Shown: positions 2 through 14,572, numbered from the stretch's first letter. The stretch is DNA of 14,782 nucleotides from Candidatus Eiseniibacteriota bacterium (GCA_031370645.1 JANMQV010000004.1:1-14782); one strand, 5' to 3'. The notes: generated from the letters alone by a model not told the origin. Numbers and translations: made by a program.

Positions 2-1756
2 TTCACGATCCGGCGCCAGCTCCTCGGCAGCGCGCTTCTTGCGCTCGCGGGGTTCGTCCTCTTCGGTCTCGTGGCGTTCGCCACGCTGAACGAACTGAAG
101 ATCAACGGGCCGCGTTATCTCCGCATCATCCAGGGGAAGGACCTGGTGGCCGACCTCGTGCCGCAGCCGGTCACGCTGGTTGAGTCGTACCTGGCCGTCC
201 ACCAGATGCTGGGCGAGACCGATCGCCGCCGGCTGGACGAGCTGATCCGCGATTCGCAGGAACTTCGCGCCGAGTTCGAGGCGCGCCATCAGTACTGGGA
301 GAAGATGCTCCCGGCCGGCGCTCTGAAGACGGCGCTCCACGACCGCGCGTACCCGCCCGCGTCGGACTTCCTCCGCGTCGTGGAGAACGAGTTCATTCCC
401 GCGGTGCGCCGCGGCGACCAGGATGGCGCGCGTCTCATCGCCGACGGTTCGCTGAAGCCGCTCTACGAGCAGCACATGAAAGTAGTGCTCGAGATGGTGC
501 AGCTCGCGACGCAGCAGACGACGCAGGAGGAGAAGGCGGCGCTCGCCATCGCGCGTCAGCGTTCGGCGCTCGTGCCGCTCCTCGGCCTCGTGCTCGCCGG
601 CGTCACGCTTACGATCGGGCTCGTCCTCTCGCGGCGCATCGTCCGCGCCATCGAGCAACTTCGCCGCGTGGCGGAGCGGACGGCGGGCGGCGATCTGACC
701 TGCCGCGTGCCCTATACGGGAAACGATGAGCTCGGGCAGCTCGCCTCCTCCACGAACCAAATGGTCGACTCGCTCCGCGGCGTCCTCTCCCATATCGGGG
801 ACCGCGCCGTGACGCTCGCGACCGCTTCCGAGGAACTTTCGTCCGTCTCGACGCAGATGATCGGAAGCGCGGAGGAGACTTCTCGCCAGGCGAATGTGGT
901 TTCCTCCGGATCCGAACAGATCAGCCGAAGCGTGGAAAGTGTCTCCGTCTCCGTGGAGGAGATGATCGCGAGCATTCAGGAGATCTCGAAAAACACGGGC
1001 GAGGCGGCGAGGGTCGCCACCGTGGCCGCCGGCGAGGCGAGTATCACGAACGCCGCCGTGAACAAGCTCGGCGCGAGCAGTGGGGAGATCGGGAAGGTCG
1101 TGCAGGTGATCAATACGATCGCGCAACAGACGAACCTTCTCGCCTTGAACGCCACCATCGAGGCGGCGCGCGCCGGCGAGGCCGGCAAGGGATTCGCGGT
1201 CGTGGCGAACGAAGTGAAGGAACTCGCGAACGAGACGGCCGCCGCCACGAAGGACATTAGCCGGAAGATCGAGGCGATTCAGGCCGACACGCTCGACGCC
1301 ATCCAGGCGATCGGGAAGATCAGCGAAACGATTCAGCAGATCAAGGACATCTCGAACTCGATCGCGACGGCGCTGGAGCAGCAGTTGGCCACGTCGGGCG
1401 AGATCGGACGCAATCTTACCGAGGCGGCGCGAGGGAGCGGCGAGATCAGCGCCGGCATCGTGAAGGTGGCCGAGATCGCGCGCGACACCGCCGGCAGCAG
1501 CGAGAACACGCAGCGCGCGGCCGAGGAATTGGCCCGCCTGGCCGCGGAACTTCGGGGGCTGACGCAGCGCTTCCGAATCTCGAACGACGGATCGCCCGAA
1601 GAGGGCGACGCTTCGCTCCTGGCGGCGCGGGCGTCGCACGCCGCACCCGCTACGGTGGTCGCGATGGAAGCGGCGAGAGCGGCGCAGGCCGCGCGGGTGG
1701 CGCGCGGCGAAGGACGCCGGGGCGACGACGTCATGCCATTCGCGAACGCGGGTTAA
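2..1756 (+). CDS. Methyl-accepting chemotaxis protein (TM1, helical extracytoplasmic sensor, TM2, HAMP, signalling domain); 5' end lies outside the window
   Basis: The frame is open from nt 2 ([24 protein letters not shown] = TM1), so GTG 71 is not the true start. TM2 is [20 protein letters not shown]. The HAMP segment is ...[27 protein letters not shown]. The canonical tip motif is [37 protein letters not shown]. Confidence 0.96.
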
Positions 1757-1823
1757 CGATGAAGACTCTTGTCCCCAACGAACGGCGCGGACCGCGCGGA
1801 CCGAAACACGGAGGAAATCGATA

Positions 1824-2207
1824 ATGAAGGCCCTCGTAGTCGACGACTCGCGCTCCATGCGAGCGATTCTCTCGAAGCAGCTCCGAGAACTCGGATTCAC
1901 GGTCGTGGAGGCCCCCGGTGGAACGGAGGCGCTTCGGTCTCTGGATCAGGAGGGGCCGTTCGACATCGTCCTCCTGGATTGGAACATGCCGGAAATGGAC
2001 GGGCACGAAGTGCTGACGCTCATCCGGGCGCAGGAGGCGTACAAGGAAGTCCGCGTCATGATGGTGACGACCGAGAGCGAAATGTCTCAGGTCTCCGTCA
2101 CGCTCGAAGCGGGCGCCAACGAGTACCTCATGAAACCTTTCGACCGTGATGCCCTCGTGGAGAAGCTGGTGCTCCTGGGGCTCGACCCGAGCGGCCACAC
2201 GCTGTAA
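1824..2207 (+). CDS. cheY: Single-domain response regulator CheY
   Basis: 127-aa receiver domain with LVVDD, phosphoacceptor LLDWNMP, MMVTT and YLMKPF. A GGAGG RBS lies upstream, and the gene sits between an MCP and cheB. Confidence 0.93.
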   Translation: MKALVVDDSRSMRAILSKQLRELGFTVVEAPGGTEALRSLDQEGPFDIVLLDWNMPEMDGHEVLTLIRAQEAYKEVRVMMVTTESEMSQVSVTLEAGANEYLMKPFDRDALVEKLVLLGLDPSGHTL

Positions 2208-3313
2208 TGGGAGAAGTCATGCGCCGGATTCGCGTGATGGTGGTGGACGACGTCTCCATCGTTCGGAGGCTCGTGACGAACGCGCTCGGCGCCGACCCCG
2301 ACATCGAAGTCGTCGGAGCGGCGGCCAATGGGCGTGAAGCGCTGGAGAAGATTCCGGTCGTGAAGCCCGACCTGGTCATTCTCGATTACGAAATGCCGGA
2401 AATGGACGGCATGGAGACGCTGAAGGAGATCCGGAAGAAGCCGGGCGGCCCGAAGGTGATCTTTTTTTCGTCGTATACGCGGCAGGGCGCGAAGGTCTCG
2501 CTCGACGCGCTCTGGCAGGGAGCGGACGACTACGCGACGAAGGTGACGGCCGACAATCTGGCCGCGGCGACGCTTTGCGTGCAGTCGGAACTCCTTCCGA
2601 AGATCAAGGCGCTCTGCGAGAGCATGGCCGCTCCGCGGAGTCAGGCGCCGGCACCGGTCGCGCTCCCCGCCGCGCCGCCGGCGTCTCCGGCGACGTCCGG
2701 ATCGGGCCTCCACCGCGCCGAAATCCTGGCGATCGGAGCCTCGACGGGCGGCCCTCGCGCGCTCTCGGCCGTGATCGAAGCGTTGCCCGCCGAATTTTCA
2801 ATTCCGATCGTGGTGGTGCAGCACATGCCGCCCCTCTTCACCCGTTCGCTCGCCGAGCGGATCGCCTCCCGGTCGGCGCTTCGTTGCGCCGAAGGCGTGG
2901 ACGGCGCGTTGGTCGAACCGGGTACGGTTTGGATCGCTCCCGGCAACTGGCATATGTCGCTTCAGCGGGAGGGCGCCGACACGCGGCTTCGCCTCACGGC
3001 CGATCCTCCGGAGAACTCCTGCCGGCCATCGGTCGATCCCCTCTTCCGTTCGGTGGCCGAACTTTACGGCGCCGGAGCGCTCGGCGTGATCTTGACCGGC
3101 ATGGGGCAGGACGGGCTCCTCGGCGCGCGGAGTCTCCACGAGCGCCAGGGGAAAATCATCGTGCAGGACGAGGCGACGAGCGTGGTCTGGGGGATGCCAG
3201 GTGCGGTCGCCCGAGCGGGGCTCGCGAATCGAATCGTGCCGCTTCATGAAATGGCCGGAGAAATCCTCAAGCACGTGAGCGCCGCAGGCAGGCGCCGCGC
3301 CACCGTCGCCTAA
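2207..3313 (+). CDS. cheB: Chemotaxis response regulator / methylesterase CheB
   Basis: N-terminal REC (VVDD, ILDYEMP) and a Pro/Ala linker. Catalytic motifs GASTGG (Ser), VQHMP (His), CRPSVD and LTGMGQDG (Asp) are present, followed by QDEATSVVWGMP. The start overlaps the cheY stop (TAATG); ATG 2219, preceded by GGGAG, is an alternative start. Confidence 0.97.
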   Translation: MGEVMRRIRVMVVDDVSIVRRLVTNALGADPDIEVVGAAANGREALEKIPVVKPDLVILDYEMPEMDGMETLKEIRKKPGGPKVIFFSSYTRQGAKVSLDALWQGADDYATKVTADNLAAATLCVQSELLPKIKALCESMAAPRSQAPAPVALPAAPPASPATSGSGLHRAEILAIGASTGGPRALSAVIEALPAEFSIPIVVVQHMPPLFTRSLAERIASRSALRCAEGVDGALVEPGTVWIAPGNWHMSLQREGADTRLRLTADPPENSCRPSVDPLFRSVAELYGAGALGVILTGMGQDGLLGARSLHERQGKIIVQDEATSVVWGMPGAVARAGLANRIVPLHEMAGEILKHVSAAGRRRATVA

Positions 3314-3335
3314 CGCGAGGACCGACACGGACCCC

Positions 3336-4232
3336 ATGGATTCCATCGGTATTCCTTCCACCGCCGAAGTTTTGGATCCGGGCGGTTACGCCTATTTGCA
3401 GCGACTCCTCCTCGAACGGACCGGCATCGTGCTCGAGCCCGGGAAGGAGTACTTGGCAGAGGCGCGGCTTCACGCCCTCATGAAGTCGGAGGGATTCGGA
3501 AGCATTTCCGCGCTCCTCGAAGCACTGCAGATGGACGAGCGGAGGGGCCCGCTCCATCGCCGCGCGATCGAAGCGATGCTGAACGGGGAGACTTCGTTCT
3601 TCCGAGACCACTACCCGTTCGAAGCGCTTCGAACCACGATCCTCCCCGAGCTGATGGCGGCCCGGGCGGGGTCGAAATCGCTGAACATCTGGTGCGGAGC
3701 CGCATCGAGCGGGCAGGAAGCCTACAGCGTCGCCATGCTTTTCCTGGAACACGTTCCAGCGCTCCGGGACTGGAGGGTTCGCATCACGGCGACCGACCTT
3801 TCGGAGGGGAGCCTCCAGCGGGCCCGCGACGGCGTGTACCGGCAGATCGAGGTGAATCGCGGGCTCCCGGCGCCCTATCTGGTGAAGTACTTCGAGCGCT
3901 CGGGAGAAGAGTGGCGGGTGAAGGCGCGGGTCCGGGAAATGGTCGAATTCAGCCACATGAACCTGATCGAACCGTGGCCCAATTTTCCTCGGCCCGACGT
4001 AATTCTCCTGCGAAACGTACTCCTCTACTTCAGTTCCGAGGCGCGGAAGTCGATATTGCAGAACGTAGTGAGAACGCTTCGCTCCGACGGATATTTTTTC
4101 CTAGGGGGCGGAGAGACGATGCTGGCGCTCGATCGCACCTTCGAATCGGTGCGACTCGGAAAGGCCATCTGCTATCGGATCCGCGGCGATCACCCGATCG
4201 GCGCGCCGAAACCGGAGAACACGGCTCGATGA
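3336..4232 (+). CDS. cheR: Chemotaxis protein-glutamate methyltransferase CheR
   Basis: Motifs NGETSFFRD, IWCGAASSGQEAYS, ITATDLS, ILLRNVLLYF and GYFFLGGGE match CheR. Confidence 0.97.
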   Translation: MDSIGIPSTAEVLDPGGYAYLQRLLLERTGIVLEPGKEYLAEARLHALMKSEGFGSISALLEALQMDERRGPLHRRAIEAMLNGETSFFRDHYPFEALRTTILPELMAARAGSKSLNIWCGAASSGQEAYSVAMLFLEHVPALRDWRVRITATDLSEGSLQRARDGVYRQIEVNRGLPAPYLVKYFERSGEEWRVKARVREMVEFSHMNLIEPWPNFPRPDVILLRNVLLYFSSEARKSILQNVVRTLRSDGYFFLGGGETMLALDRTFESVRLGKAICYRIRGDHPIGAPKPENTAR

Positions 4233-4711
4233 GCACGACGACGATCGATCTCCAGGAGTGGCTCGATTCGCTGACCGAGATCGCGAAGCACTACGCCGCC
4301 AACCACCTTCGTTTCGACCGTAACGCCTCGCCGCCGAACCCCGCGGCTCCCAGTGCGCCCCGCCCCGCCGTTTACGTCTCGATTCTCGGCGCGCGGAGCA
4401 GCATGCACCTCGGGATCGCGACGACGCCGGAGGGAGCGCGCGCCCTCGCTCGCGCGTTCCTGGGCATGCGCGGTCCGGAAGAGCTCGCCGATCGCGACGT
4501 TGTGGATGGATTCAGCGAGATCCTCAACATCCTCGCGGGGAAAGTGAAGTCGCGGATGACGGCGCGGGACGCGTCGCTCAAGTTGGGGCTCCCGATGTAC
4601 GTCTCCGGTTCCGTGGGGCACGGCGACGGTACCGAGAAGGCGACCGCCGACGTGATGATGGGTCCGATTCCTTGCCAGATTCAGGTTTTCCGCCAGAGTC
4701 GTTCCGCGTAG
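4229..4711 (+). CDS. cheX: CheX-family CheY-P phosphatase (160 aa)
   Basis: The true start is ATG 4229, overlapping the cheR stop (ATGA); the 339-aa ORF-track version is over-extended. It carries the CheC/CheX motif DGFSEILNILAG (E-x-x-N) followed by LKLGLPMYVSG. Confidence 0.85.
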   Translation: MSTTTIDLQEWLDSLTEIAKHYAANHLRFDRNASPPNPAAPSAPRPAVYVSILGARSSMHLGIATTPEGARALARAFLGMRGPEELADRDVVDGFSEILNILAGKVKSRMTARDASLKLGLPMYVSGSVGHGDGTEKATADVMMGPIPCQIQVFRQSRSA

Positions 4712-4722
4712 GGAGACGCCCG

Positions 4723-6129
4723 ATGAACGCGACCGCACCGCTCGAACACCAGCGCGTATCGGCCACCTGGCTGGCCGGCCTTCTCGCGCTCGCCCTGGCC
4801 GCAATGATTCTCGGCAGGGCCGAACCCGCGCGCGCCGCCGCGAGCCGCGGAACGACGACGCTCACGGGCGTGGTCCCGGGCGAGACGTTCGGCTGCTCTG
4901 TTTCCTCGGCCGGCGACGTGAACGGCGACACCTTCGTCGATGTCATCGTCGGGGCGTACCAGAGCGGAACCGCCGCGAATCCCTCGGGGCGCGCCTACAT
5001 CTACTTCGGCGGACCGCGCGCCGACGAACGGGTCGATGTGGTCCTTTCCGGCGAGGCCGCGGGAGACGCCTTCGGGGTCAGCGTCGCGTCGGCCGGCGAC
5101 GTGAATCATGACGGGTTCGCCGACGTCATCGTGGGCGCCTATGAAAACGACGCGCGCGGAGCGAACGCGGGGCGGGCTTACATCTATTTCGGCGGTGCTT
5201 CGATGGACGACAAGCCCGATGTGGTCCTCACCGGCGAGATGCCGGGCGACGCCTTCGGCTACGCCGTCGCGGGCGCGGGCGACGTGAACCGGGACGGCTA
5301 TTCCGATGTGATCGTCGGCGCGTACGAGAACAGCGCGCGCGGCGCCGGCGCGGGACGCGCCTACGTCTACTACGGCGGTCAGCGCCCCGACCCGGTGGCC
5401 GACGCGATCTTGAACGGCGAAACCGCCGGCGATCGCTTCGGGATCTCGGTCGCCGGCGCGGGCGACGTGAATGGCGACGGATTGGCCGACATCCTGGTCG
5501 GTGCGTATCAAAACGACGCCGGCGGCGTCGACGCGGGGCGCGCCTACCTCTATCTCGGGAGCGCTCGCATCCTCGATCGGGCCGCCACCGTGCTCACCGG
5601 AGCGGAAGCGGGGGACTCGTTTGGATTCGCGGTCTCCACGGCCGGCGACGTGAACAAGGATGGACTGGCCGATATCGTGGTCGGCGCCTACCACAACGGG
5701 GCCGGCGGCAAGGACGCGGGGCGTGCCTACGTCTACTTTGGGGGCAAGTCGGTCTCTCCCGCGCCCGACGTGGTCTTCACCGGCGAGGCGGCGGGCGACG
5801 CGTTTGGTTACGCGGTCGGCTCGGCCGGCGATGCGAACGGAGACGGCTACGCGGACATCCTGATCGGCGCGTACGGAAACGACGCGGGTGGCTCGGCGGC
5901 GGGCCGTGCGTACGTTTACTACGGCGCGCCTACTCCTGATCCGGTGGCGGACTGGTTCCTTACGGGGTTTCAGACGTTGGATAATCTCGGGTTTGCCGTA
6001 TTCGGGGCTGGCGATGTCGATGGCGACGGGTTCGCCGACGTTGTTGTCGGTGCTCCCTATTCGGATGCTGGGCGTGCCTACATTGCCAAGACTGTCGGTG
6101 GGAAGAATCGGCCTGTCGTTACTCGGTAG
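4723..6129 (+). CDS. Secreted FG-GAP repeat protein, integrin-alpha-like seven-bladed beta-propeller (468 aa)
   Basis: ATG 4723 follows GGGAG. A hydrophobic signal peptide (WLAGLLALALAAMILG...ARAAA) precedes seven repeats of FG-x-x-V-x-x-AGD(V/A)(N/D)xDx(F/Y/L)xD-x-x-VGA...GRAY, each with a DxDxDG-type Ca2+-binding loop. Confidence 0.93.
   Translation: MNATAPLEHQRVSATWLAGLLALALAAMILGRAEPARAAASRGTTTLTGVVPGETFGCSVSSAGDVNGDTFVDVIVGAYQSGTAANPSGRAYIYFGGPRADERVDVVLSGEAAGDAFGVSVASAGDVNHDGFADVIVGAYENDARGANAGRAYIYFGGASMDDKPDVVLTGEMPGDAFGYAVAGAGDVNRDGYSDVIVGAYENSARGAGAGRAYVYYGGQRPDPVADAILNGETAGDRFGISVAGAGDVNGDGLADILVGAYQNDAGGVDAGRAYLYLGSARILDRAATVLTGAEAGDSFGFAVSTAGDVNKDGLADIVVGAYHNGAGGKDAGRAYVYFGGKSVSPAPDVVFTGEAAGDAFGYAVGSAGDANGDGYADILIGAYGNDAGGSAAGRAYVYYGAPTPDPVADWFLTGFQTLDNLGFAVFGAGDVDGDGFADVVVGAPYSDAGRAYIAKTVGGKNRPVVTR
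4885..6085 (+). repeat. Seven intragenic degenerate tandem repeats of 183 bp (61 codons)
   Basis: The Asp codon of each AGD motif falls at 4915, 5098, 5281, 5464, 5647, 5830 and 6013, an exact 183-nt period. The outer boundaries are approximate. Confidence 0.92.
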
Positions 6130-6131
6130 GA

Positions 6132-7781
6132 CTAAGAAGCAGCCCCCTCCGGAGCCTTCCAGGGGGTCTTGTTCTTGATGACCTCGATCCGCGCTTCCTT
6201 CAAGGCGGGCACGAACACCTCGACGACCTCCGCCGCGAACTGAGACCCAGCCTTCGTGGTCATCTGTTCCATCGCCTGCTCGGCGGTCATGCCGGCGCGA
6301 TAGGGGCGGTCGGTGGTCATGGCGTCGAAGGCGTCCGCTAGGTTCACGATCTTCGCGTGGAGGGAGATCTCGTCGCCCGTCAGGCCGTCGGGATATCCCT
6401 TTCCGTCCACCCGCTCGTGGTGGTGGCGGATCATGTCGATCGCCCTCTCGAGGAATTTGACGCCGCGAACCATTTCCGCGCCGCGGACGGGGTGCGCCTT
6501 CACCAACTTCCACTCCTCCTCCGTCAGCGCGCCCGGCTTGTGGAGAATTTCATCCTGCGTGTGGACCTTCCCGATGTCGTGGAGGAAGGCGCCGAACTGA
6601 ATCGTCTGGACCTCTTCAGCCGGTAGCTCCATCTCGCGCGCGATCGCGACCGAGTAGGCCGCCACGCGCTCGGTGTGTCCGTGCGTGTAGGGATCCTTCT
6701 CTTCGATCCGCGACACGAGGAGGCGTACCGTCGAGACGTAGGCTTCCTGAAGATCGCGGAAGAGTCGCGCGTTCTCGATCGCGATGCCCGCCGACTCGGC
6801 GAGCGAGCGGAGCATCTCGAGATCCGCGGACTGGAACTCCTGTCCGCTCACCTTCTCGCCCACCGCGACGAGGGCGGAGAGGCGGCCCTTCACGATGACC
6901 GGGCAGACGACCGTCAAGCCGGCCGAGAAGAGACGTCCCACGTCCTTCGCGATGCCGGGATCGCGCTCGAGGGAGGCGAGGCGAACCGATCGCTGGTCCT
7001 CGCCGTCGGCGGGCCGAAGCGCGCGCACCAGATCGCTGCCGTAGGAGAGCGCGATGCCCCGCACTTGTTCTTCCTTCAGTCCCTTGAAGGTTGAGACGTC
7101 GAGGCGGGTCGGGTTCTCGCGGTCGTCGGTGAGGAAGAGACAGGCTGAATTGACGCGCAACTGGCCCATGACGCTCAGAATCAGCGTGTTGAGCAGCGGC
7201 TCCAACTCGAGCGAGGCGTTCAGTTGATGCGTGAGCCCCATGAGCGTTTCGAGGCTGTAGACCTGGAAGCGGAGTTCCTTGTTCCGAACCAGCAGGTCTT
7301 CGCGGTTTCGCTGAACTTCGCTCTCGAGTTCCTGATTCTTCGTCGAGAGAACGTCGTGGCGCTCCATCCGCTCGAAGATGCGCCGCACCTTGATCAGGAG
7401 CTCCTTCGGCGAGAAGGGCTTCGTGAGGTAGTCGTCGGCTCCGTGCATGAGGCCCTGGAGCCGCGAATCGACCTCGGCGCTCGCGGAGACCATCACGATC
7501 GGGATGTGCGCGGTCTCGCGCGTGCTCTTCAGCGCGGCGCAGATCTCGAACCCGCTCTTCTTCGGCAACCGGAGGTCGAGGATCACGAGATCGGGCGCCT
7601 CGCGGCGGACGGAATCGAGCGCTTCCTCGCCGGTCATGGCGGTCTGGACGGTGTAGCCGTTCTGCGAAAGCGAAATCTGAAGCAGGTCGACGACGCGGCG
7701 GTCGTCGTCCACGACGAGAATGGTCCGCTTCGAGCGCACGATGTTCGGATCGGTGGCCGGCCGGAGGCTTTCGGTGGTCAC
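6132..7781 (-). CDS. REC-coiled coil-GAF-HD-GYP cyclic dinucleotide phosphodiesterase (RpfG-like response regulator, 549 aa), catalytic motifs intact
   Basis: Probable GTG start at 7781 with GGAG 8 nt upstream, overlapping the upstream stop (GTGA). REC motifs are ILVVDDD, VILDLRLP and DDYLTKPF. The GAF ends ...AGIAIENARLF. HD-GYP motifs are EKDPYTHGHTERVA, LHDIGK, HPVRG, HHHERVDGKGYPDGL and ADAFDAMTTDRPYR. Confidence 0.94.
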   Translation of the reverse strand: MTTESLRPATDPNIVRSKRTILVVDDDRRVVDLLQISLSQNGYTVQTAMTGEEALDSVRREAPDLVILDLRLPKKSGFEICAALKSTRETAHIPIVMVSASAEVDSRLQGLMHGADDYLTKPFSPKELLIKVRRIFERMERHDVLSTKNQELESEVQRNREDLLVRNKELRFQVYSLETLMGLTHQLNASLELEPLLNTLILSVMGQLRVNSACLFLTDDRENPTRLDVSTFKGLKEEQVRGIALSYGSDLVRALRPADGEDQRSVRLASLERDPGIAKDVGRLFSAGLTVVCPVIVKGRLSALVAVGEKVSGQEFQSADLEMLRSLAESAGIAIENARLFRDLQEAYVSTVRLLVSRIEEKDPYTHGHTERVAAYSVAIAREMELPAEEVQTIQFGAFLHDIGKVHTQDEILHKPGALTEEEWKLVKAHPVRGAEMVRGVKFLERAIDMIRHHHERVDGKGYPDGLTGDEISLHAKIVNLADAFDAMTTDRPYRAGMTAEQAMEQMTTKAGSQFAAEVVEVFVPALKEARIEVIKNKTPWKAPEGAAS

Positions 7782-9508
7782 GAGTTGTTCTCCAGGGACA
7801 GGGGGTCGAATGGATCGGGCGGAGCGCCGGGTGCTTCGCCGTCGGATTCGGAGGACTTCGCGGCCGGAGCCACCGGAATCGTGGCGCCCGAACCGAGCGG
7901 GTCGAGTTCGGCGCGCTCCGCCGGGGCGGCCGCCTCGCGAACTTCGTTCGCGGGGACGTCCAGACGCGGGCGCGAGCGTTTTTCCATCTTCTCCAACACG
8001 GCCAGGAACGTCTCGACGAGCGCGGGGTCGAACGGCGTCCCCCAGTTCTCCGAGATCACCTGCCGCGCCTTTTCGTACGGGAGCGCCCGGCGATAGGGGC
8101 GTTCGCTCGTCATCGCCACATAGGCGTCCACCAGCGACACGATCCGAGCGCCGATCGGGATTTCCTGCCCCTTGATCCCCACGGGATAGCCGTCGCCGCC
8201 CCAGCGCTCGTGATGGTTCAGCACGACCTCCACGACTTCGCGCGGCAGGTTCATCTCCTCGATGATCTGCGCACCCCGCGTCGGGTGCTGCTTGATCATC
8301 GACCACTCCTCCTCAGAGAGATGCGCCGGGTTCTTCAAGATCAGATGGCTCACCGCGATCATGCCGATGTCGCGGAGCACGGCACCGTAGATGAGGCCCT
8401 TCAACTGCTCCTGCGGCAACTGAAGCACGCGGGCCATAGCGGTCACGAATCGAACGACGCGCTCGGTACTTCCCTTCGCGTAGACATCGCGGCTTTCGAT
8501 GAGCGACATCATTCCGCGGACGAGGCCCAGATTCCGTTCCTCGGCCTGGCGGTGAAACCGCGCGTTCGCGATGGCGACCGCGGCCTGGTGTGCCAGAATG
8601 GTGAGGAGGTCGCGCTCATCCTCCTGGAAGGCGCGCCGACCACCTCGTCCCCCGAGGAAAAGCATCCCGATCAGATCCTGACGGATCCAGAGCGCGATCC
8701 CCCACTGGAGCCCGGAACGGCGGAGGAGTTCGGAGATCTCGGAAGCGTCCGCGTCCGGCTGACCGCCGACCATCGCTTCCTGCGATGCCGATGGCGCATC
8801 CACCGCGCCGAGATCGATAAAGATTCCATGCCGCGCGAGCGATTCGATCGTTGCGATCGGGAGAAGCAAGTCGCGGAAGTGATGCTGGCCGAATCCGCGC
8901 ACCTGGCGCGGCGCCATCTGCCCTTCGTGGTCCGGGTCGACGAGGAAGAGCGCGAGGCGCTCCACGCCGAACTGTCCCATCACGCTGAGACTGAAAAGAT
9001 TCAGAACCGCGTCGAGATCGCGCGCGAGGTTCAACCCCTGCGTGATCTCGAAGAGGCTCCGGAATTCGACGATCTTTCGCCGCAACTTGAGGTGGAGCGC
9101 CTGGTACTCCGCGGCGCTCGGACCCGGTGCCGCCGGGGAGGACGCGGTCGCTGCGTTGGCCGTGCCGCCGTTGCCATTGGCCACCTTGCCGGCGGCCGCG
9201 ACGTTCGAGGCATAGATCAGGGCTCCGGTGCCGACGAGCGCCTCGCGAACGCCACCACCGACGCCGTGAACCACGATCCGCCGTTCCGTGCTTTCGTAGA
9301 CGCGCGCCTGACGCTCGAGGACGGCGATTCCGAGCGTGGAAATCTCGCTCACCGACTCCACGTCGAGATGAACTTCCCTGGCGTCACGGGCCTGGCACCG
9401 AAACAGGAGCCGATCGAGCACTCGCGCGCCGTCGGCGTCGATGACACCGCGGAGCGCGAATCGGAATTCGTCGCGCGGAGCGAGCCGTTCGAGCGTGAGC
9501 TGCTTCAT
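7778..9508 (-). CDS. STAS-GAF-HD-GYP protein with a degenerate metal-binding site (probably a catalytically inactive phosphodiesterase homologue)
   Basis: STAS-like N-terminus (FALRGVIDADGA...VHLDVESVSEISTLGIAVL) and a GAF ending HQAAVAIANARF. The HD-GYP region has HHERWGGDGYPVG and RPYR, but LRDIGM replaces LHDIGK and YAKGSTERV replaces YTxGHxERV. The start overlaps the upstream stop (ATGA). Confidence 0.9.
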   Translation of the reverse strand: MKQLTLERLAPRDEFRFALRGVIDADGARVLDRLLFRCQARDAREVHLDVESVSEISTLGIAVLERQARVYESTERRIVVHGVGGGVREALVGTGALIYASNVAAAGKVANGNGGTANAATASSPAAPGPSAAEYQALHLKLRRKIVEFRSLFEITQGLNLARDLDAVLNLFSLSVMGQFGVERLALFLVDPDHEGQMAPRQVRGFGQHHFRDLLLPIATIESLARHGIFIDLGAVDAPSASQEAMVGGQPDADASEISELLRRSGLQWGIALWIRQDLIGMLFLGGRGGRRAFQEDERDLLTILAHQAAVAIANARFHRQAEERNLGLVRGMMSLIESRDVYAKGSTERVVRFVTAMARVLQLPQEQLKGLIYGAVLRDIGMIAVSHLILKNPAHLSEEEWSMIKQHPTRGAQIIEEMNLPREVVEVVLNHHERWGGDGYPVGIKGQEIPIGARIVSLVDAYVAMTSERPYRRALPYEKARQVISENWGTPFDPALVETFLAVLEKMEKRSRPRLDVPANEVREAAAPAERAELDPLGSGATIPVAPAAKSSESDGEAPGAPPDPFDPLSLENNS

Positions 9509-11232
9509 GCCGTTCCGTCCCCGCCTCCGCCCGGTGCCTCGCTCCCTCCGAACGCCGCGCCTCGCAGCCGGCGCATGACGGCCGCCGGATGGAGCACGAG
9601 CGTCACCTGCCCGTCGCTACCGATGATTCCACCGAACACCTCTTCCACCGGGTAGAGCCGCGGCGGAAGCGGCGAGAGGCGCGCGTTCTCGCGCCAGACG
9701 ATTCGATCGAAGCCGATGGCGCCCGTCCCGCCCCCGCAGCGAAGGACGGCGAGCGGCCCGTTCGAGGGCTTCGCCGTTTCGCTGGCGCGACGAGGAAGCG
9801 CGTCGGAGATTTCGATGGCCGTGAAGAGCGACGAAAGCGGAACGACCTCGGGCTGATCGGTACCGCCCACCCAGGAGAGTTCGTCGGCGCTCGAACAGAT
9901 TCGGTCGATGGAGCTCCAAGGGAGCGCCACCCGCTGGCCCGCCGCCTCGACGATGAGGAAGCCACGAAGGGAGCGCGCCATCGGGAACTGGAGATGCAGG
10001 AGTTCGGAACCGTTCTGCCCCGCTTGAATCGTGACGAATCCGCCGAGTTCCTCCAGTCCGCTCTCCAATTGCTGGAGAGCGTCGGGCTCGAAGCGCACGC
10101 GTCCCTCGATGGCGATACGCGCCTCCAGTCCCTCGCGGGCGGCCGTGAGCCGAAGCTCGCGCGTCACCTCGCCCTCGGGGGACACCGCCGTTTCGAGGAG
10201 CCGAAAGAGCAGGGGAAGGAGTATGGCGCCGATCTCCGGTTCGAAGCCCACTCCGCCCGTGTGGACGGTGAGGACGCTTCGCCTGGAGTCTGTGTCGCGA
10301 CGCGAGGCCGCGGCGTAGAACTCGTCGATGAAACGATCGAGCGGATCAAGGAATTCCCAGAGCAGATGCTCGTCGAGATCGCGCGCCCGCCGTTCGAGCG
10401 AGAACTGGATGCCGAGGAGCTGATGGAGATCGTGGACGAGCGTTCGCATCCCGCCCGCCACTTCCTCCAGTTTCTGATGGATCTGAATGGCTCGGGCAGC
10501 GACGGTCGGACCGGGATTCGTGCGCCGGCGGCCGCTCGTGGCGGCGGCGTCCGCCGCGGCGGGTCCGCCGCGCGCCGGATCGATCGCCTTCATGAGCCCG
10601 TCCCACTCGGTGAGGACGCTCTGCATGGAGCGGAGCGTGCCGCCGAGGCCGTCGCTGATCGCGCCGATCCGGTCGTTCTGATGCACGAGCGAGGACTTGA
10701 TCTCGAAGGTGAGCGCGAGGAGGTTCTCGCGAGGCGCCATGTCGGGCGTGACGTCGTCGATGACGCCGCGAGAGGCGTTCAGAGCCTCGGTCTTCGCGCG
10801 GCCGAGCCGGGCGCGCAGCTGATCGACCGCATCGCCGACGGAGGCGGCGTGCGCGAGAAGTGCCGCGAAGCCGTCGGTCCGAAGCTGCTCGGCGAGCTTC
10901 TCCTGCGTCTCGAGCGCGACGCGACAGTGCGTCACGAGTTCCTGGCGCTGCGCCGGGCGGAGGCTCCCCAATTGGTGGAGCGTCTCCCGGAGTTCCCGCG
11001 CCAACGACGCGACCGTGCCGATGTCGAGCCACTCGGCGCTCCGCTCCACGAGCCGGACCGAGAGTTCGACGAGCGGGCCCATCTCGTGCCCCTCCAGCTC
11101 GGGCGTGTCGCTGTCGAGGAAGCGCCGAACGATTTCGATCTCTTCGTGAATGAGCGCGCTGAACGTCGCGCTGAGGCGTGACATCATCTGTTCGTTATTC
11201 AGGTGTTCCGAAGCGGCGGTGCGCATGGTCAT
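9505..11232 (-). CDS. cheA: CheA-like protein (Hpt-like, dimerisation, degenerate HATPase, CheW/P5 domains), predicted pseudokinase
   Basis: The C-terminus matches the CheA P4/P5 region: LEELGGFVTIQ...LHLQFPMARSLRGFLIVEAAGQRVALPWSSI and VFGGIIGSDGQVTLVLHP. DLDEHLLWEFLDPLDRFIDEF resembles the P3/P4 junction (eLqe.vm..RmvPl..lF.rF). The N-terminal helices fit the Hpt pattern. It lies next to an MCP and cheW and has a GGAG RBS. Catalytic boxes are absent, but the frame is intact. Confidence 0.82.
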   Translation of the reverse strand: MTMRTAASEHLNNEQMMSRLSATFSALIHEEIEIVRRFLDSDTPELEGHEMGPLVELSVRLVERSAEWLDIGTVASLARELRETLHQLGSLRPAQRQELVTHCRVALETQEKLAEQLRTDGFAALLAHAASVGDAVDQLRARLGRAKTEALNASRGVIDDVTPDMAPRENLLALTFEIKSSLVHQNDRIGAISDGLGGTLRSMQSVLTEWDGLMKAIDPARGGPAAADAAATSGRRRTNPGPTVAARAIQIHQKLEEVAGGMRTLVHDLHQLLGIQFSLERRARDLDEHLLWEFLDPLDRFIDEFYAAASRRDTDSRRSVLTVHTGGVGFEPEIGAILLPLLFRLLETAVSPEGEVTRELRLTAAREGLEARIAIEGRVRFEPDALQQLESGLEELGGFVTIQAGQNGSELLHLQFPMARSLRGFLIVEAAGQRVALPWSSIDRICSSADELSWVGGTDQPEVVPLSSLFTAIEISDALPRRASETAKPSNGPLAVLRCGGGTGAIGFDRIVWRENARLSPLPPRLYPVEEVFGGIIGSDGQVTLVLHPAAVMRRLRGAAFGGSEAPGGGGDGTA

Positions 11233-11244
11233 CCCTGCTCCGTC

Positions 11245-12822
11245 TTAACTGCGGTGACGCGGCTCGATCCCCTCGAGCCAGTCGGGAATCTTCGGTAGGA
11301 CCAATGAGGCCGGATCGCCCGAACCGTGAGGTTCGGTGGTCGCCGAAGGCGCCGGCGAATCGGGACCGTCCGATCCATCCACCGCCTCCGTCGTCGTTGC
11401 TTCCGCGGGGGTCGACTCCAGGCGCGACGGCTCTTCCGGTACAACCGGCTCGGAATTCGAAACCGTCGGCTCGAATCCTCCGAACGCGACGTTACCGAAG
11501 TCGTTGTGCGTTTCGGACGGAGCGTCATGCGACGCCACGGAAGGCAGGGCGGTGCGCTCCTCGGCGTCCACAAAGCTCACGTGGACGTCGGCCGCGTCCG
11601 CTTCGGACGATTCGGATAGCGTGGGTGCGTGCACATAGGCGGGCCGATCGCTCGTATCGGACTCGACCGCGGCCGAAGCGACGGGGGCGTCGACCGCCAC
11701 CGGCTCCTCACGGCGGACGGCCGTCTTCTCGCGAAGAACGCGAACGCGGTGGAGTAGCGACTGGAGTGCCGTCACGGTCTCCGGCGCGACGCCGTGCGTG
11801 GCGGCTCCGGCGCCCGGTCCCATGGAGGCGACCGCCGCCTTCGCGTCCTCGCTGCTTTCTTGGATGGATGAGATCGTCTCGCAGACCTTGATCTCGATTT
11901 CACCCGAGAGGCGGGAGATCGTGTCGGTTGCTTCGCGCGCGTATTCGGCCAGGCGGCGCGTCTCCTCGGCGATCGAGGCGAAGGCCTCGCTCCCCGAACG
12001 CGTCGCTTCGAGCGCAGCGTTCAAGGCGAGGAGCGTCGCGCGATTCGTCACACGCTCCGCCACGCCCGCCAACTCGCTCGCGCGCATGAGGCCGGCGGCA
12101 AGGTCTTCGATACCGTCGGCAGCGGTCTGCACCAGGGCGTCCACCATCTTGGCCGGCGACGAATCGTGAACCGTCGAACCGGTGGAGCGTTCCGCTTGGA
12201 GCGACGTGACGACCGGCTCCAAGTCGTGCTCGATGGCGTTCAGTTCCTCACGAATCGGCTGGAGCGCTTCCTCCAGTTCGCGGATGACCGCCGCTCGGTC
12301 GTACGCCGGGGCGGAGACGCTCACCGCGTCGTTCTTGCGGACGCCTCCCACCAACTCTTCCTCGCCGTGCGAAGGGCTCGGCACGAACGCTCGCGGCGTT
12401 CCACCGTGCTCTTCGACCTCGCGGCGGACGCGCTCGACTTCCTGAACGGCGAGCGTCGCGGTCCGCTGCGCTTCGACGTGACCGACCGCTTGTGCGTAGA
12501 GCGTGGCCCAAGGCTCGGCGCGGAAACGCGACGGAGGGGTGGCGGGCGCGTTCTCGGCGGTGACCGCCTCGAGAAGCGCGATTGCCTTCACGTCGGGGGG
12601 CGTGCTCTTGATCGTCACGAACGTGGCGACGGACGCGCCCGCGACCGCGATGACCGCTGCGACGGCCAATCCGAGGAAGTCGCCCAAACCGTAGGCGCTA
12701 CCTGCAGCGCCGAGCCCCGTGAGGAGCACGACGGTGAAGATCGCGGCCGTCGGCGAGGGGGGCGACGAAGGCGCTCCCTGGCTCTTCGGAGATTCGTGGT
12801 GATCGCGACCTACGTCCGTCAT
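11245..12822 (-). CDS. Atypical chemoreceptor (MCP-like, 525 aa): hairpin of two TM helices with no extracellular sensor, short divergent signalling domain, long acidic tail
   Basis: ATG 12822 is preceded by AAGGAG. The hydrophobic stretch is AAIFTVVLLTGLGAAGSAYGLGDFLGLAVAAVIAVAGASVATFVTI. The MCP tip-like motif is RATLLALNAALEATRSGSEAFASIAEETRRLAEYAREATDTI. The gene lies between cheW and the cheA-like gene. Confidence 0.85.
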   Translation of the reverse strand: MTDVGRDHHESPKSQGAPSSPPSPTAAIFTVVLLTGLGAAGSAYGLGDFLGLAVAAVIAVAGASVATFVTIKSTPPDVKAIALLEAVTAENAPATPPSRFRAEPWATLYAQAVGHVEAQRTATLAVQEVERVRREVEEHGGTPRAFVPSPSHGEEELVGGVRKNDAVSVSAPAYDRAAVIRELEEALQPIREELNAIEHDLEPVVTSLQAERSTGSTVHDSSPAKMVDALVQTAADGIEDLAAGLMRASELAGVAERVTNRATLLALNAALEATRSGSEAFASIAEETRRLAEYAREATDTISRLSGEIEIKVCETISSIQESSEDAKAAVASMGPGAGAATHGVAPETVTALQSLLHRVRVLREKTAVRREEPVAVDAPVASAAVESDTSDRPAYVHAPTLSESSEADAADVHVSFVDAEERTALPSVASHDAPSETHNDFGNVAFGGFEPTVSNSEPVVPEEPSRLESTPAEATTTEAVDGSDGPDSPAPSATTEPHGSGDPASLVLPKIPDWLEGIEPRHRS

Positions 12823-12841
12823 GGCGCGCTCCTTTGCTTGC

Positions 12842-13336
12842 TCAACGACCGCCGATCCCACTCAGCCGGAAGGCGGCCGGGGGAGCGATCGAATCCATCA
12901 GGGACCAGTAGTCGAGACCGAGAACTTCCCGGCCGGCGATTTCATAGATAGCGAGGACGGCCGGCTCGTCGCGCTCGGCGTCCGGCTCGGCCGCCGGAAG
13001 TTCGCGATGCTGGGCGTCGCGCGAGAGCACGAGCCGCGGCATGCCGCGAACGAGAATCGCGAAGCGATCGGTTCCGCGCTCTAGCACCACCGCATACGCG
13101 CCGGCGCTGGTCGACTCTTCCACATGGAGCGCGGCCGCGAGGTCGAGTACCGGCACGACGCCGCCACGAAACGCCACGACGCCGGCCACCGGCCCGTTCC
13201 GGCCGGGGAGGAGCGAGAGCCGATCCGCGTCGAGAAGTCCGGCCACCTCTTCGACCGGCGCCGCATAGCGAGCGGCGCCCACATCGAAGGTGATCAGACC
13301 GCGCGTGGCGAGAACGGACCGCAGTGGCTCTTCCAT
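12842..13336 (-). CDS. cheW: CheW scaffolding protein (164 aa)
   Basis: ATG 13336 has GGAG upstream. LITFDVGAARYAAPVEEV...LLPGRNGPVAGVVAFRGGVVPVLDL...RFAILV matches the CheW pattern. Confidence 0.9.
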   Translation of the reverse strand: MEEPLRSVLATRGLITFDVGAARYAAPVEEVAGLLDADRLSLLPGRNGPVAGVVAFRGGVVPVLDLAAALHVEESTSAGAYAVVLERGTDRFAILVRGMPRLVLSRDAQHRELPAAEPDAERDEPAVLAIYEIAGREVLGLDYWSLMDSIAPPAAFRLSGIGGR

Positions 13337-13389
13337 CGTTGGCGCTCCGAGGCCGCGAAGGCTTGGGACATGAAGCAGATAAGTGGAAG

Positions 13390-13404
13390 GCAAGGAGCAT
13401 GCCA
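13390..13404 (-). promoter_or_regulatory. Sigma-54 (RpoN) -24/-12 promoter for the cheW-mcp-cheA-HD-GYP operon
   Basis: The minus strand reads TGGCAT-GCTCC-TTGC against the consensus TGGCAC-N5-TTGC, with exact GG-N10-GC spacing. The predicted start near 13378 is about 40 nt upstream of the cheW ATG. Confidence 0.8.
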
Positions 13405-13648
13405 CGAAGCAGCTTTCGCGCCCGGGCGTAACTCCCTGTCTTCCTTCTGCTTCCCTACGTTCCTATCGGCGGGGCAGAAGCGTTCCGGAGCGAATTCAGC
13501 CAGGGGGTGGTTGGCACGTTGCAATCCTGGCCGCAAAACGCAATCAAGCTCGGTCAAGGCGCGAAATTCCACCCAGTCATAGGGCTGAAACAAACCAGCG
13601 GTGGATCGAAGGAGCCGCCGATCGCGTACGGATGGATTCTGGCCATGC

Positions 13649-13669
13649 GGTGTAGTGCGCTGCCACACC
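13649..13669. promoter_or_regulatory. Palindrome GGTGT-N11-ACACC, candidate enhancer-binding-protein site
   Basis: A perfect 5-bp inverted repeat with a TGT-N11-ACA core lies between the two divergent sigma-54-like promoters. Confidence 0.3.
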
Positions 13670-13705
13670 AATGGTTAGGCGACTCGATTCCCCCCACAAG
13701 AGTTG

Positions 13706-13721
13706 CGGCACGGCATGTGCA
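13706..13721 (+). promoter_or_regulatory. Sigma-54-like -24/-12 promoter for the divergent hypothetical gene
   Basis: CGGCAC-GGCAT-GTGCA has exact GG-N10-GC spacing with GGCACG and TGCA cores. The predicted start near 13732 is about 60 nt upstream of ATG 13793. Confidence 0.62.
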
Positions 13722-13728
13722 GAGAGTG

Positions 13729-13777
13729 TCGGACGTGCGTTGCGGTGGTGCAGGGCCGCGACCGACGAAACGTCCGA
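13729..13777 (+). promoter_or_regulatory. Stem-loop occupying the predicted 5' leader
   Basis: TCGGACGT (13729-13736) pairs perfectly with ACGTCCGA (13770-13777). The inner stem GTTGCGGT/GCCGCGAC has two G-U pairs. The structure ends just before the purine-rich RBS. Confidence 0.5.
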
Positions 13778-13792
13778 AAGGGGGAGAGGGTC

Positions 13793-14572
13793 ATGGCGGG
13801 TACGAGAAAGGTCGTCGCGGGAAAGTCGGCTCCACGGAAGGTGCGACCGCACGCCTATGTCGCCATGAACTGTCTTCTGCTGACGCGAGCGGAAGGTACG
13901 CCTCAAAACGGCGATCCACTACCGCAAGAGGATGTGAACGCGTACCTCGAGGCGCTTCGCGACCAATTGGAAGCGAACGTGCCGCTCCCTCCGGAGCGGA
14001 CGCGACTCCTGTCGCGCTACGACATCGCCGCGTGGCGGCGGTTGGCCGGCACGAGCCGCGGCTCGCTCAAGTATCAGGTGCTTCGCACGCCGACCGATCT
14101 CCTTCTCGTCTCGGTGGGAATCTTCGAGCAGAGCGGCCCCTACATTCCGAGCCGTCGCGAGGGGATGCTCCCGGGTGAGGAGGCCGACATGGGCCGGAGC
14201 CCCGGTTGGTATCACTTCTCGTACACGTACGGCGAACTCCTCGAGAACCCGACGTCGACGCTCAGTTCGGTGCTCGAGAAGCTCACGGTAAGTTTGGAGC
14301 GCTATCACAAGATGCTGTCGCACATGAAGGGCGAGTACTGGAGCATGGCGTCCCGATTCGAAGACGCCCAGGTGATCCGCATCGAGCGCACCGTAGACGA
14401 GGAAGCCCGGGAACTGGCGATTCGCGCCATGCAGGACCGGCTTCTCGACGCCTACGCGGAGTGGAAGAAGACGGGCGCCCGGAAACACCTCGACCAGATC
14501 CGCGGCATCGCTCGCGAGATCCGGACTCTCTCGCCTGACTTCACTTTCTCGCTTCCGGCGGGAGGTAAGTAG
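13793..14572 (+). CDS. Hypothetical cytoplasmic protein (259 aa), no family recognised
   Basis: A strong purine-rich RBS (AAAGGGGGAGAGGG) precedes ATG 13793. Third codon positions are GC-rich and the amino-acid composition is globular. The ORF is flanked by a promoter-like motif and terminator-like hairpins. Confidence 0.85.
   Translation: MAGTRKVVAGKSAPRKVRPHAYVAMNCLLLTRAEGTPQNGDPLPQEDVNAYLEALRDQLEANVPLPPERTRLLSRYDIAAWRRLAGTSRGSLKYQVLRTPTDLLLVSVGIFEQSGPYIPSRREGMLPGEEADMGRSPGWYHFSYTYGELLENPTSTLSSVLEKLTVSLERYHKMLSHMKGEYWSMASRFEDAQVIRIERTVDEEARELAIRAMQDRLLDAYAEWKKTGARKHLDQIRGIAREIRTLSPDFTFSLPAGGK

Follow-up and report, generated by a model that had tools for sequence, protein, structure and literature searches.

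A conserved operon in one Eisenbacteria family, built around a CheA descendant without kinase motifs and a degenerate/active pair of HD-GYP proteins

To our knowledge, every described chemosensory array signals via the autophosphorylation of CheA. The Wsp system of Pseudomonas relies on an active CheA-type kinase, possesses a CheR and a CheB of its own, and drives a diguanylate cyclase. In this work, we analyzed a stretch of 14,782 nucleotides from a Candidatus Eiseniibacteriota bacterium (GCA_031370645.1, JANMQV010000004.1:1-14782), referred to here as the window, which is the entire contig C4 of a 3.0-Mb metagenome-assembled genome (247 contigs, 95% complete). The window contains five genes encoding a CheW, a receptor resembling methyl-accepting chemotaxis proteins (MCPs), a CheA-like protein and two HD-GYP proteins. 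We are nearly certain that these genes form a conserved operon built around a kinase-dead descendant of CheA, and its signaling probably relies on contacts between proteins and not on CheA phosphorylation. As in Wsp, a chemosensory-type module is combined with an output enzyme of cyclic di-GMP (c-di-GMP) metabolism that carries a receiver. Unlike in Wsp, the CheA-type protein is kinase-dead, CheR and CheB are absent from the operon, and the predicted output consists of a phosphodiesterase together with a pseudo-enzyme, so that the operon does not classify as Wsp-like.

Other described proteins resemble parts of this arrangement. According to the accessible text of a CheA architecture survey, all homologues included there possess four core domains (PMC10782961). 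R. sphaeroides CheA3, as presented in the available sections of PMC6829392, has no kinase domain and carries a phosphorylatable His domain; it is phosphorylated by CheA4 and dephosphorylates CheY6. In P. aeruginosa, the MCP-like protein PA2573 binds PA2572, which combines a receiver with a degenerate HD-GYP domain (PMC3411652, accessible text), and this pair provides a precedent for the reading preferred here. The shared features would be signaling from an MCP-like protein to the HD-GYP family by direct contact, which in the operon is a proposed contact, and the involvement of a degenerate HD-GYP protein. The pair differs, in the same text, in having no CheW- or CheA-like partner and in carrying the receiver on the degenerate protein, with a receiver-dependent interaction, whereas the operon places the receiver on the active enzyme and a STAS domain on the degenerate one. 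A survey of HD-GYP proteins (bioRxiv 10.1101/2021.11.05.467447) describes, in its available sections, receivers separated by GAF domains and inactive forms that often bind c-di-GMP or use protein contacts. Its main text makes no mention of STAS, CheW or chemotaxis; therefore, a STAS-GAF-HD-GYP protein within a chemosensory operon is not covered there. A literature search, with subscription journals largely outside its range, yielded no account of an operon that combines a kinase-dead CheA with HD-GYP proteins.

The five genes are arranged head to tail on the minus strand in the order cheW, MCP-like gene, CheA-like gene, STAS-GAF-HD-GYP gene and REC-GAF-HD-GYP gene (REC, receiver). In gene order, they are separated by spacers of 19 and 12 bp and then joined by an ATGA and a GTGA overlap. 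The stop/start overlaps with the CheA-like gene suggest translational coupling. A predicted sigma-54 -24/-12 promoter element, TGGCAT-N5-TTGC (TGGCATgctccTTGC; 13390-13404, minus strand), is located 54 bp upstream of the cheW ATG. It represents the single match to TGGCAY-N5-TTGC in the window, where 0.01 would be expected, and a match was obtained in 3 of 200 shuffles. The element was retained in all 27 orthologous upstream regions, 23 of them with TGGCAY-N5-TTGC and 4 with GGCAY-N5-TTGC, at 55-82 bp ahead of the called start. The prediction of sigma-54 dependence is based on the GG-N10-GC element, its suitable distance and the presence of rpoN, as the host genome encodes one rpoN and approximately 20 enhancer-binding proteins in 3 Mb. 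A preliminary description of the window had reported both the spacing of the five genes and the sigma-54 motif, and both are confirmed here.

The third gene (9505-11232, minus strand) encodes the CheA-like protein of 575 amino acids. Searches against Pfam gave no match to Hpt, H-kinase_dim or HATPase_c and just a sub-threshold match to CheW/P5 (E=0.003), and NCBIfam assigned no name. An AlphaFold2 (AF2) model built from 32 sequences (mean pLDDT 75) had CheA P3-P4-P5 structures as its best Foldseek matches (6s1k_A at 2e-15, followed by 3ja6, 1b3q and 8c5v), and VIA-align placed model residues 164-555 onto residues 299-671 of T. maritima CheA with a Z of 17.6. Sequence similarity is recognizable only in P5 and in the final strands of P4: the family profile retrieved CheA chains from the PDB at E=3e-5, and an hhalign comparison with ten canonical CheAs from this bacterial family (E=2.3e-6) covered the same region only. 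P2 was not recognizable.

Through the structural alignment, the domains could be delimited. A long helical hairpin (residues 164-294; 10351-10743, minus strand) occupies the position of the P3 dimerisation domain within the match to CheA, with no Pfam H-kinase_dim match. It is followed by a degenerate P4 of the Bergerat fold (residues 294-419; 9976-10353, minus strand), likewise with no HATPase_c match, of which 123 residues were aligned to the 187-residue P4 of T. maritima CheA (354-540) with a Z of 14.9 and a root-mean-square deviation of 2.5. This P4 is shorter than that of CheA by about 60 residues, and the lid segment is gone. The ten canonical CheAs of the family contain HTIKG, HLIRNAIDHGIE, DDGxG, PGFST and GRGVGMD. 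In the hhalign comparison, with the box-by-box residue correspondence read by eye, the N, G1, F and G2 boxes have no counterpart in the CheA-like protein, and P4 thus lacks the ATP-binding boxes. The P5 domain (residues 420-555; 9568-9975, minus strand) is CheW-like and aligned to residues 541-671 of 4jpb_A with a Z of 15.0, which identifies it as a receptor-coupling P5.

The N-terminal part of the protein forms a four-helix bundle (approximately residues 13-125; 10858-11196, minus strand; AF2 pLDDT 81) that is P1/Hpt-like in shape only. Foldseek returned no match for it at E<=0.001, and the best ones, Hpt proteins and CheA P1 at E 0.1-1, were level with designed helical bundles. No invariant His was found in the first 160 residues among 16 orthologues, and a Pfam Hpt search of the 16 was negative at a threshold as permissive as E<=10; the conserved phospho-accepting His of P1/Hpt domains is therefore not present in the family. 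The second helix of the bundle contains the invariant residues R60, L61, V62, R64, A66, W68 and L69. An origin of the bundle from an Hpt domain may be considered.

Together, these results identify the CheA-like protein as a CheA descendant without kinase sequence features, a conserved pseudokinase and not a decaying gene. It shares with the canonical CheAs of T. maritima and E. coli the P3-P4-P5 fold, a sequence-recognizable P5 and a gene beside those for CheW and MCP. It differs from them in lacking a conserved His, the four boxes and a recognizable P2, and in its shortened P4. The absence of any match to the Pfam Hpt, H-kinase_dim or HATPase_c models also sets it apart from the homologues in the accessible text of the CheA survey, and domain-based chemosensory censuses would be expected to overlook it for this reason.

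The remaining chemosensory components are encoded by the first two genes. The cheW paralogue (12842-13336, minus strand; 164 amino acids) belongs to Pfam CheW, with 62.2 bits against a cut-off of 23.5. The MCP-like receptor (11245-12822, minus strand; 525 amino acids) is composed of two N-terminal hydrophobic segments, a short signaling hairpin and a variable acidic tail. Its signaling domain was assigned through a Pfam MCPsignal match just over the cut-off (38.9 bits against 34.6, residues 237-345) and the retained NLLALNAA core. MCPsignal was the only Pfam family matched, with no HAMP and no ligand-binding family, so that no input domain was recognized. A transmembrane hairpin with a very short loop is predicted at approximately residues 27-72 (12607-12744, minus strand), with Kyte-Doolittle hydropathy peaks centered on residues 32-37 and 49-65 and a hydrophobic block retained in the orthologues. 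The tip, RSGSEAFAAIAEETRRLAEFAREATDTISRL, is conserved across the loci of the operon. Written as EATRSGSE--AFASIAEETRRLA, it differs in sequence from its counterpart in the canonical MCP of the window, and its length is smaller by two residues; the tips were compared directly, as the BLASTP alignment of the two proteins was shifted in register along the coiled coil. C-terminal tether peptides exist in some chemoreceptors, and the acidic tail of the MCP-like protein (11245-11330, minus strand) ends in a short conserved motif that recalls these peptides (IPDWLEGIEPR in close relatives and LLIEGLKPG in distant ones).

The last two genes encode the HD-GYP pair. The upstream member (7778-9508, minus strand; 576 amino acids; Pfam STAS_2, GAF and HD_5) is a STAS-GAF-HD-GYP protein with a degenerate active site, in which GSTERV and LRDIG stand where its active neighbor has HGHTERV and LHDIG. 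Across all 31 orthologues, the first metal-ligand His is replaced by S, T, G, N or A, and the His of the HD dyad by R. FDAM is changed to YVAM, HHE, GYP and RPYR are retained, and KPG has become NPA in the window. The active-site residues of an HD-GYP phosphodiesterase are thus not complete in this protein, and its sequence suggests that it may still bind a nucleotide or serve purely as an adaptor. Because the Ser position of the STAS domain is occupied by S or C across orthologues, regulation by Ser phosphorylation is unlikely. The downstream member (6132-7781, minus strand; 549 amino acids; Pfam Response_reg, GAF and HD_5) is a REC-GAF-HD-GYP phosphodiesterase with a canonical active site. 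It carries HGHTERV, LHDIGK, HHHERVDGKGYP, HKPG and RPYR, and all HD-GYP motifs are canonical in 24/24 orthologues, comprising the metal-ligand His and Asp residues, GYP, KPG and RxY[K/R]. As in phosphodiesterases of the RpfG and PmGH type, to the extent of their accessible description, its receiver is separated from the HD-GYP domain by a GAF domain. Motif roles were taken from the HD-GYP survey (10.1101/2021.11.05.467447), which in its available sections links KPG and RxYR to c-di-GMP binding.

In the preliminary description, the operon was presented as containing a sensorless MCP with an eroded tip, a pseudo-CheA with eroded His and ATP boxes, and an inactive/active HD-GYP pair with an eroded HD dyad. 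The Pfam profile and the very short loop of the receptor, the missing His and boxes of the pseudokinase, and the contrasting orthologue sets of the two HD-GYP proteins all bear these assignments out, except in one respect: the MCP tip does differ from the canonical one, but its conservation within the family means that it is better described as a fixed variant than as eroded.

The host genome contains 6 GGDEF-domain and 7 HD-GYP matches, and from the former it follows that c-di-GMP is probably made; no flagellin was found in this genome, which is 95% complete. An output other than c-di-GMP turnover, with the HD-GYP proteins acting on another nucleotide such as cyclic GMP-AMP (cGAMP) or mainly through protein contacts, would agree with the hydrolysis of cGAMP by some HD-GYP domains and the contact-based action of inactive ones (10.1101/2021.11.05.467447, available sections). 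We consider it improbable, since the active paralogue retains the KPG and RxYR motifs tied to c-di-GMP binding and the genome encodes the GGDEF domains mentioned above.

The receiver at the N-terminus of the active HD-GYP protein is intact: its phospho-acceptor residues (DD, D, S and K) are conserved in 26-27 of the 27 orthologues, including those from genomes where no CheA was found. Its best NCBIfam matches are regulators of the RpaB, PhoB and PleD types, not CheY. These conserved phospho-acceptor residues suggest that some kinase or small phosphodonor probably acts on the active HD-GYP protein, and the phosphorylation-independent scaffold initially proposed was too strong a formulation in this regard. 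An intact receiver could also be served by the pseudokinase itself if the latter were a docking protein with phosphatase or phospho-sink activity, like R. sphaeroides CheA3, a CheA-family protein without a working kinase domain that provides a precedent (PMC6829392, accessible text). The general P1-like shape of the N-terminal bundle and the invariant residues of its second helix would be in agreement with such an activity. Its probability is nevertheless low: the similarity of the bundle to the P1 fold does not reach significance (E 0.1-1), and no known phosphatase motif was identified. Moreover, CheA3 retains the phosphorylatable His of P1, whereas the pseudokinase family has no conserved His and is kept in genomes where no CheA kinase was found.

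To describe the conservation of the system, the pseudokinase was compared with more than 120 homologues of the same length (52-96% identity), none of which has a precomputed Pfam domain, and long invariant blocks were observed in the alignment. Among 1.84 billion cluster representatives searched, only about three full-length pseudokinase clusters and a set of fragments were obtained; the next matches were ordinary CheAs, covering profile positions 376-556 only. A locus scan with one genome per species yielded 36 related loci, 28 labeled Candidatus Eisenbacteria and 8 with other submitter labels. Gene order was identical in all of them as far as the contigs reach. Counting only loci whose contig extends far enough, the MCP-like gene was present in 34/34, cheW in 29/29, the degenerate HD-GYP gene in 35/35 and the active one in 27/27. 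Pairwise ratios of nonsynonymous to synonymous substitution (dN/dS) between the window and five relatives were 0.09-0.20 for the pseudokinase, 0.13-0.18 for the degenerate and 0.05-0.13 for the active HD-GYP protein, 0.17-0.22 for CheW, and 0.21-0.37 for the MCP-like protein with its variable tail included.

The absence of signature residues from three of the five proteins could be taken as simple decay of a dying chemotaxis operon. This explanation has a negligible probability and is refuted by the present results, as the frames are intact, dN/dS ranges from 0.05 to 0.37, and four genera share the same fixed substitutions, while new invariant blocks have arisen and the promoter is conserved. 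Conserved synteny, conserved loss of catalytic residues and dN/dS were among the checks initially proposed for this locus, and the order proved to be kept and the substitutions fixed. The outcomes that had been named as contradicting the initial proposal, namely relatives with canonical motifs and dN/dS near 1, a gene order that is not conserved, or an architecture belonging to a described class, were not observed.

The distribution of the operon was examined in 201 genomes of the phylum, of which 41 belong to the carrier family, whose members are uncultured bacteria from soil, and represent four genera, labeled g1-g4. The pseudokinase was identified in 40 of these 41 genomes, the single miss being a genome that is 63% complete, and in none of the 160 genomes sampled from 17 other families. 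A CheA dimerisation domain was detected in 21 of the 41 carrier-family genomes, the window's own included. By genus, it was present in 7/7 genomes of g1, 9/10 of g4, 4/10 of g3 and 0/13 of g2, and the g2 set includes eight genomes that are 91-99% complete. The operon's CheW and MCP are the single CheW and MCP matches in 11/13 g2 and 6/10 g3 genomes. Two g2 genomes carry an extra CheW/MCP/CheR set on another contig (G146:C38 and G160:C152) with no H-kinase_dim match; these sets may represent a different chemosensory class or binning contamination.

Where a canonical CheA lies on the same contig as the pseudokinase, the two are always 11-13 kb apart. In the window, the end of a canonical chemosensory cluster was identified on the plus strand (2-4232), convergent to the operon and not part of it. 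By Pfam, it comprises a canonical MCP with HAMP, open at the 5' end and extending to 1756, CheY (1824-2207), CheB (2207-3313) and CheR (3336-4232). The operon itself contains no cheY, cheB or cheR, as stated in the preliminary description; these genes are, however, located next door in the same window. A CheA and a CheW matching this cluster were found on contig C170, and the end of C170 is compatible with the start of the window contig. The corresponding order in a complete genome from this family is ATP synthase, extracytoplasmic function (ECF) sigma factor, anti-sigma factor, CheA, CheW, MCP, CheY, CheB, CheR and FG-GAP protein, followed by the operon in reverse orientation. The canonical cluster adjoins the operon in 7 related loci and is missing from 10 loci whose downstream flank spans 3 kb or more. 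Of these 10, five were checked, and in 5/5 the operon directly adjoins the ATP-synthase genes, which in other genomes border the canonical cluster; in L036, one of these five loci, a match to sigma-70 region 4 is located in between.

The operon is therefore kept under purifying selection where no canonical CheA was found; the comparison is unrooted and agrees with either loss or gain of the canonical cluster. The persistence of the operon, with no other CheW or MCP found in the genome, is in agreement with a scaffold whose function does not require the kinase activity of CheA, and the initial claim that a CheA-type assembly is kept without the kinase is upheld by the conserved pseudokinase and by its persistence in these genomes. 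The same loci bear on a further explanation, in which the operon is an accessory branch of the neighboring canonical pathway, the pseudokinase and its CheW take part in arrays formed by the real CheA, and the latter phosphorylates the HD-GYP receiver, resulting in a Wsp-like circuit with a degrading output. The convergent CheA-CheW-MCP-CheY-CheB-CheR cluster in this genome and 7 related loci, the constant distance of 11-13 kb between CheA and pseudokinase on shared contigs and the intact receiver would all accommodate it. We regard it as rather unlikely, because 20 of the 41 family genomes keep the operon without a CheA dimerisation domain, the eight nearly complete g2 genomes among them. In addition, the operon's CheW and MCP are the sole ones found in CheA-less genomes, and the receiver is nearest to RpaB, PhoB and PleD rather than to CheY.

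In the mechanism that we propose, the MCP tip, CheW and P5 would come together at the membrane in the manner of established chemoreceptor core units, and the long helical hairpin would dimerise the pseudokinase. The two HD-GYP proteins, translated with the scaffold, would dock on the stripped P4 and the His-less bundle and would receive a signal that is conformational or based on localisation, not a phosphoryl group. As output, the active REC-GAF-HD-GYP protein would degrade c-di-GMP, its presumed substrate, and the STAS-GAF pseudo-HD-GYP protein would probably act as an adaptor, regulator or nucleotide sensor. The receiver probably adds input from another kinase or a small phosphodonor, and the GAF domains may add ligand inputs. 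A structure prediction for a complex of the whole pseudokinase and the STAS domain from the degenerate HD-GYP protein, run with no controls, gave a score of 0.00, which weighs neither for nor against such a contact.

The reading of the pseudokinase as a scaffold is well supported by the comparative evidence, and we assign a probability of roughly 60% to the mechanism as a whole, that is, a core complex passing a non-phosphoryl signal to the HD-GYP proteins. A stricter version, in which the core complex functions wholly without phosphotransfer, receptor conformation is passed directly to the c-di-GMP phosphodiesterase, and the pseudo-HD-GYP protein with its STAS domain is a coupling or feedback element, is somewhat less likely to be right than wrong. 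Several observations weigh against the proposed mechanism. The coupling step, in which the scaffold would localise or allosterically control the phosphodiesterase, is one that we infer. The receiver on the active HD-GYP protein is fully conserved, so phosphorylation is probably part of the circuit. In 21 family genomes, including that of the window, a complete canonical CheA cluster lies at a distance of about 11-13 kb, and the two modules could cooperate there, while some of the genomes without a CheA match are incomplete (60-89%). Furthermore, the frame of the degenerate HD-GYP gene stops after 257 codons in L012, close to the contig end, and 5 of 42 pseudokinase match rows have one in-frame TGA, with a two-piece match in G023 and G105.

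Other interrupted genes were also observed. The degenerate HD-GYP gene is in two pieces in L010, and the active one is in three pieces in L013 (G054; 12431-14076), where the CheR gene has an in-frame TGA (G054:C1:2994406-2994973). Since L013 is in a single-contig assembly whose CheR also has a stop, the broken genes there may be assembly errors, with real disruptions as the alternative.

Additional features were identified around the operon and the canonical cluster. An FG-GAP repeat protein of 485 amino acids (4672-6129, plus strand), in which Pfam detected seven FG-GAP repeats and whose N-terminus contains a hydrophobic stretch, is encoded between the chemosensory cluster and the operon. Its stop lies 2 bp from that of the active HD-GYP gene, and the gene is present in 7 related loci, with a different orientation in L010 and L013. 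The canonical CheA of the family (C170; L037:14898-17750) has two CheW-domain matches in one frame, likewise in most carrier genomes; a separate CheW gene follows it, and an ECF sigma/anti-sigma pair is located directly upstream. A CheR domain was detected in 39/41 family genomes, although most of the g2 matches listed are in frames of at least about 1000 amino acids and the others in frames of 300-520, which makes this count uninformative on chemotaxis adaptation in g2. Large CheR-domain frames (900-1400 amino acids) occur in most family genomes, also in those without CheA, and in the host genome a second CheR-domain match (C11:3784-4353, minus strand) lies inside a frame of 1574 amino acids.

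On the other side of the operon, a divergent gene (13793-14572, plus strand) encodes a conserved hypothetical protein of about 259 amino acids with no Pfam or NCBIfam family. It was found in 26/26 assessable loci at 68-95% identity, with a dN/dS of 0.05-0.08, and is more conserved than the operon CheW. It was considered as a part of the system and set aside, as look-alike clusters occur in other phyla (Omnitrophota and Chloroflexota). In one relative examined, its other neighbors are IMP dehydrogenase and TilS, and it is probably an unrelated conserved neighbor.

If the proposed mechanism is correct, a chemosensory array would be able to carry a signal without a kinase, in a system that survives where no real CheA was found. 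In the stricter version, the operon would constitute a kinase-free chemosensory system and the sole chemosensory module found in about half of its carriers. With one receptor, one CheW and one scaffold, it would provide a natural minimal system for the transfer of conformation through P5 and P3-P4. The operon would also represent a new way to control the local degradation of c-di-GMP.

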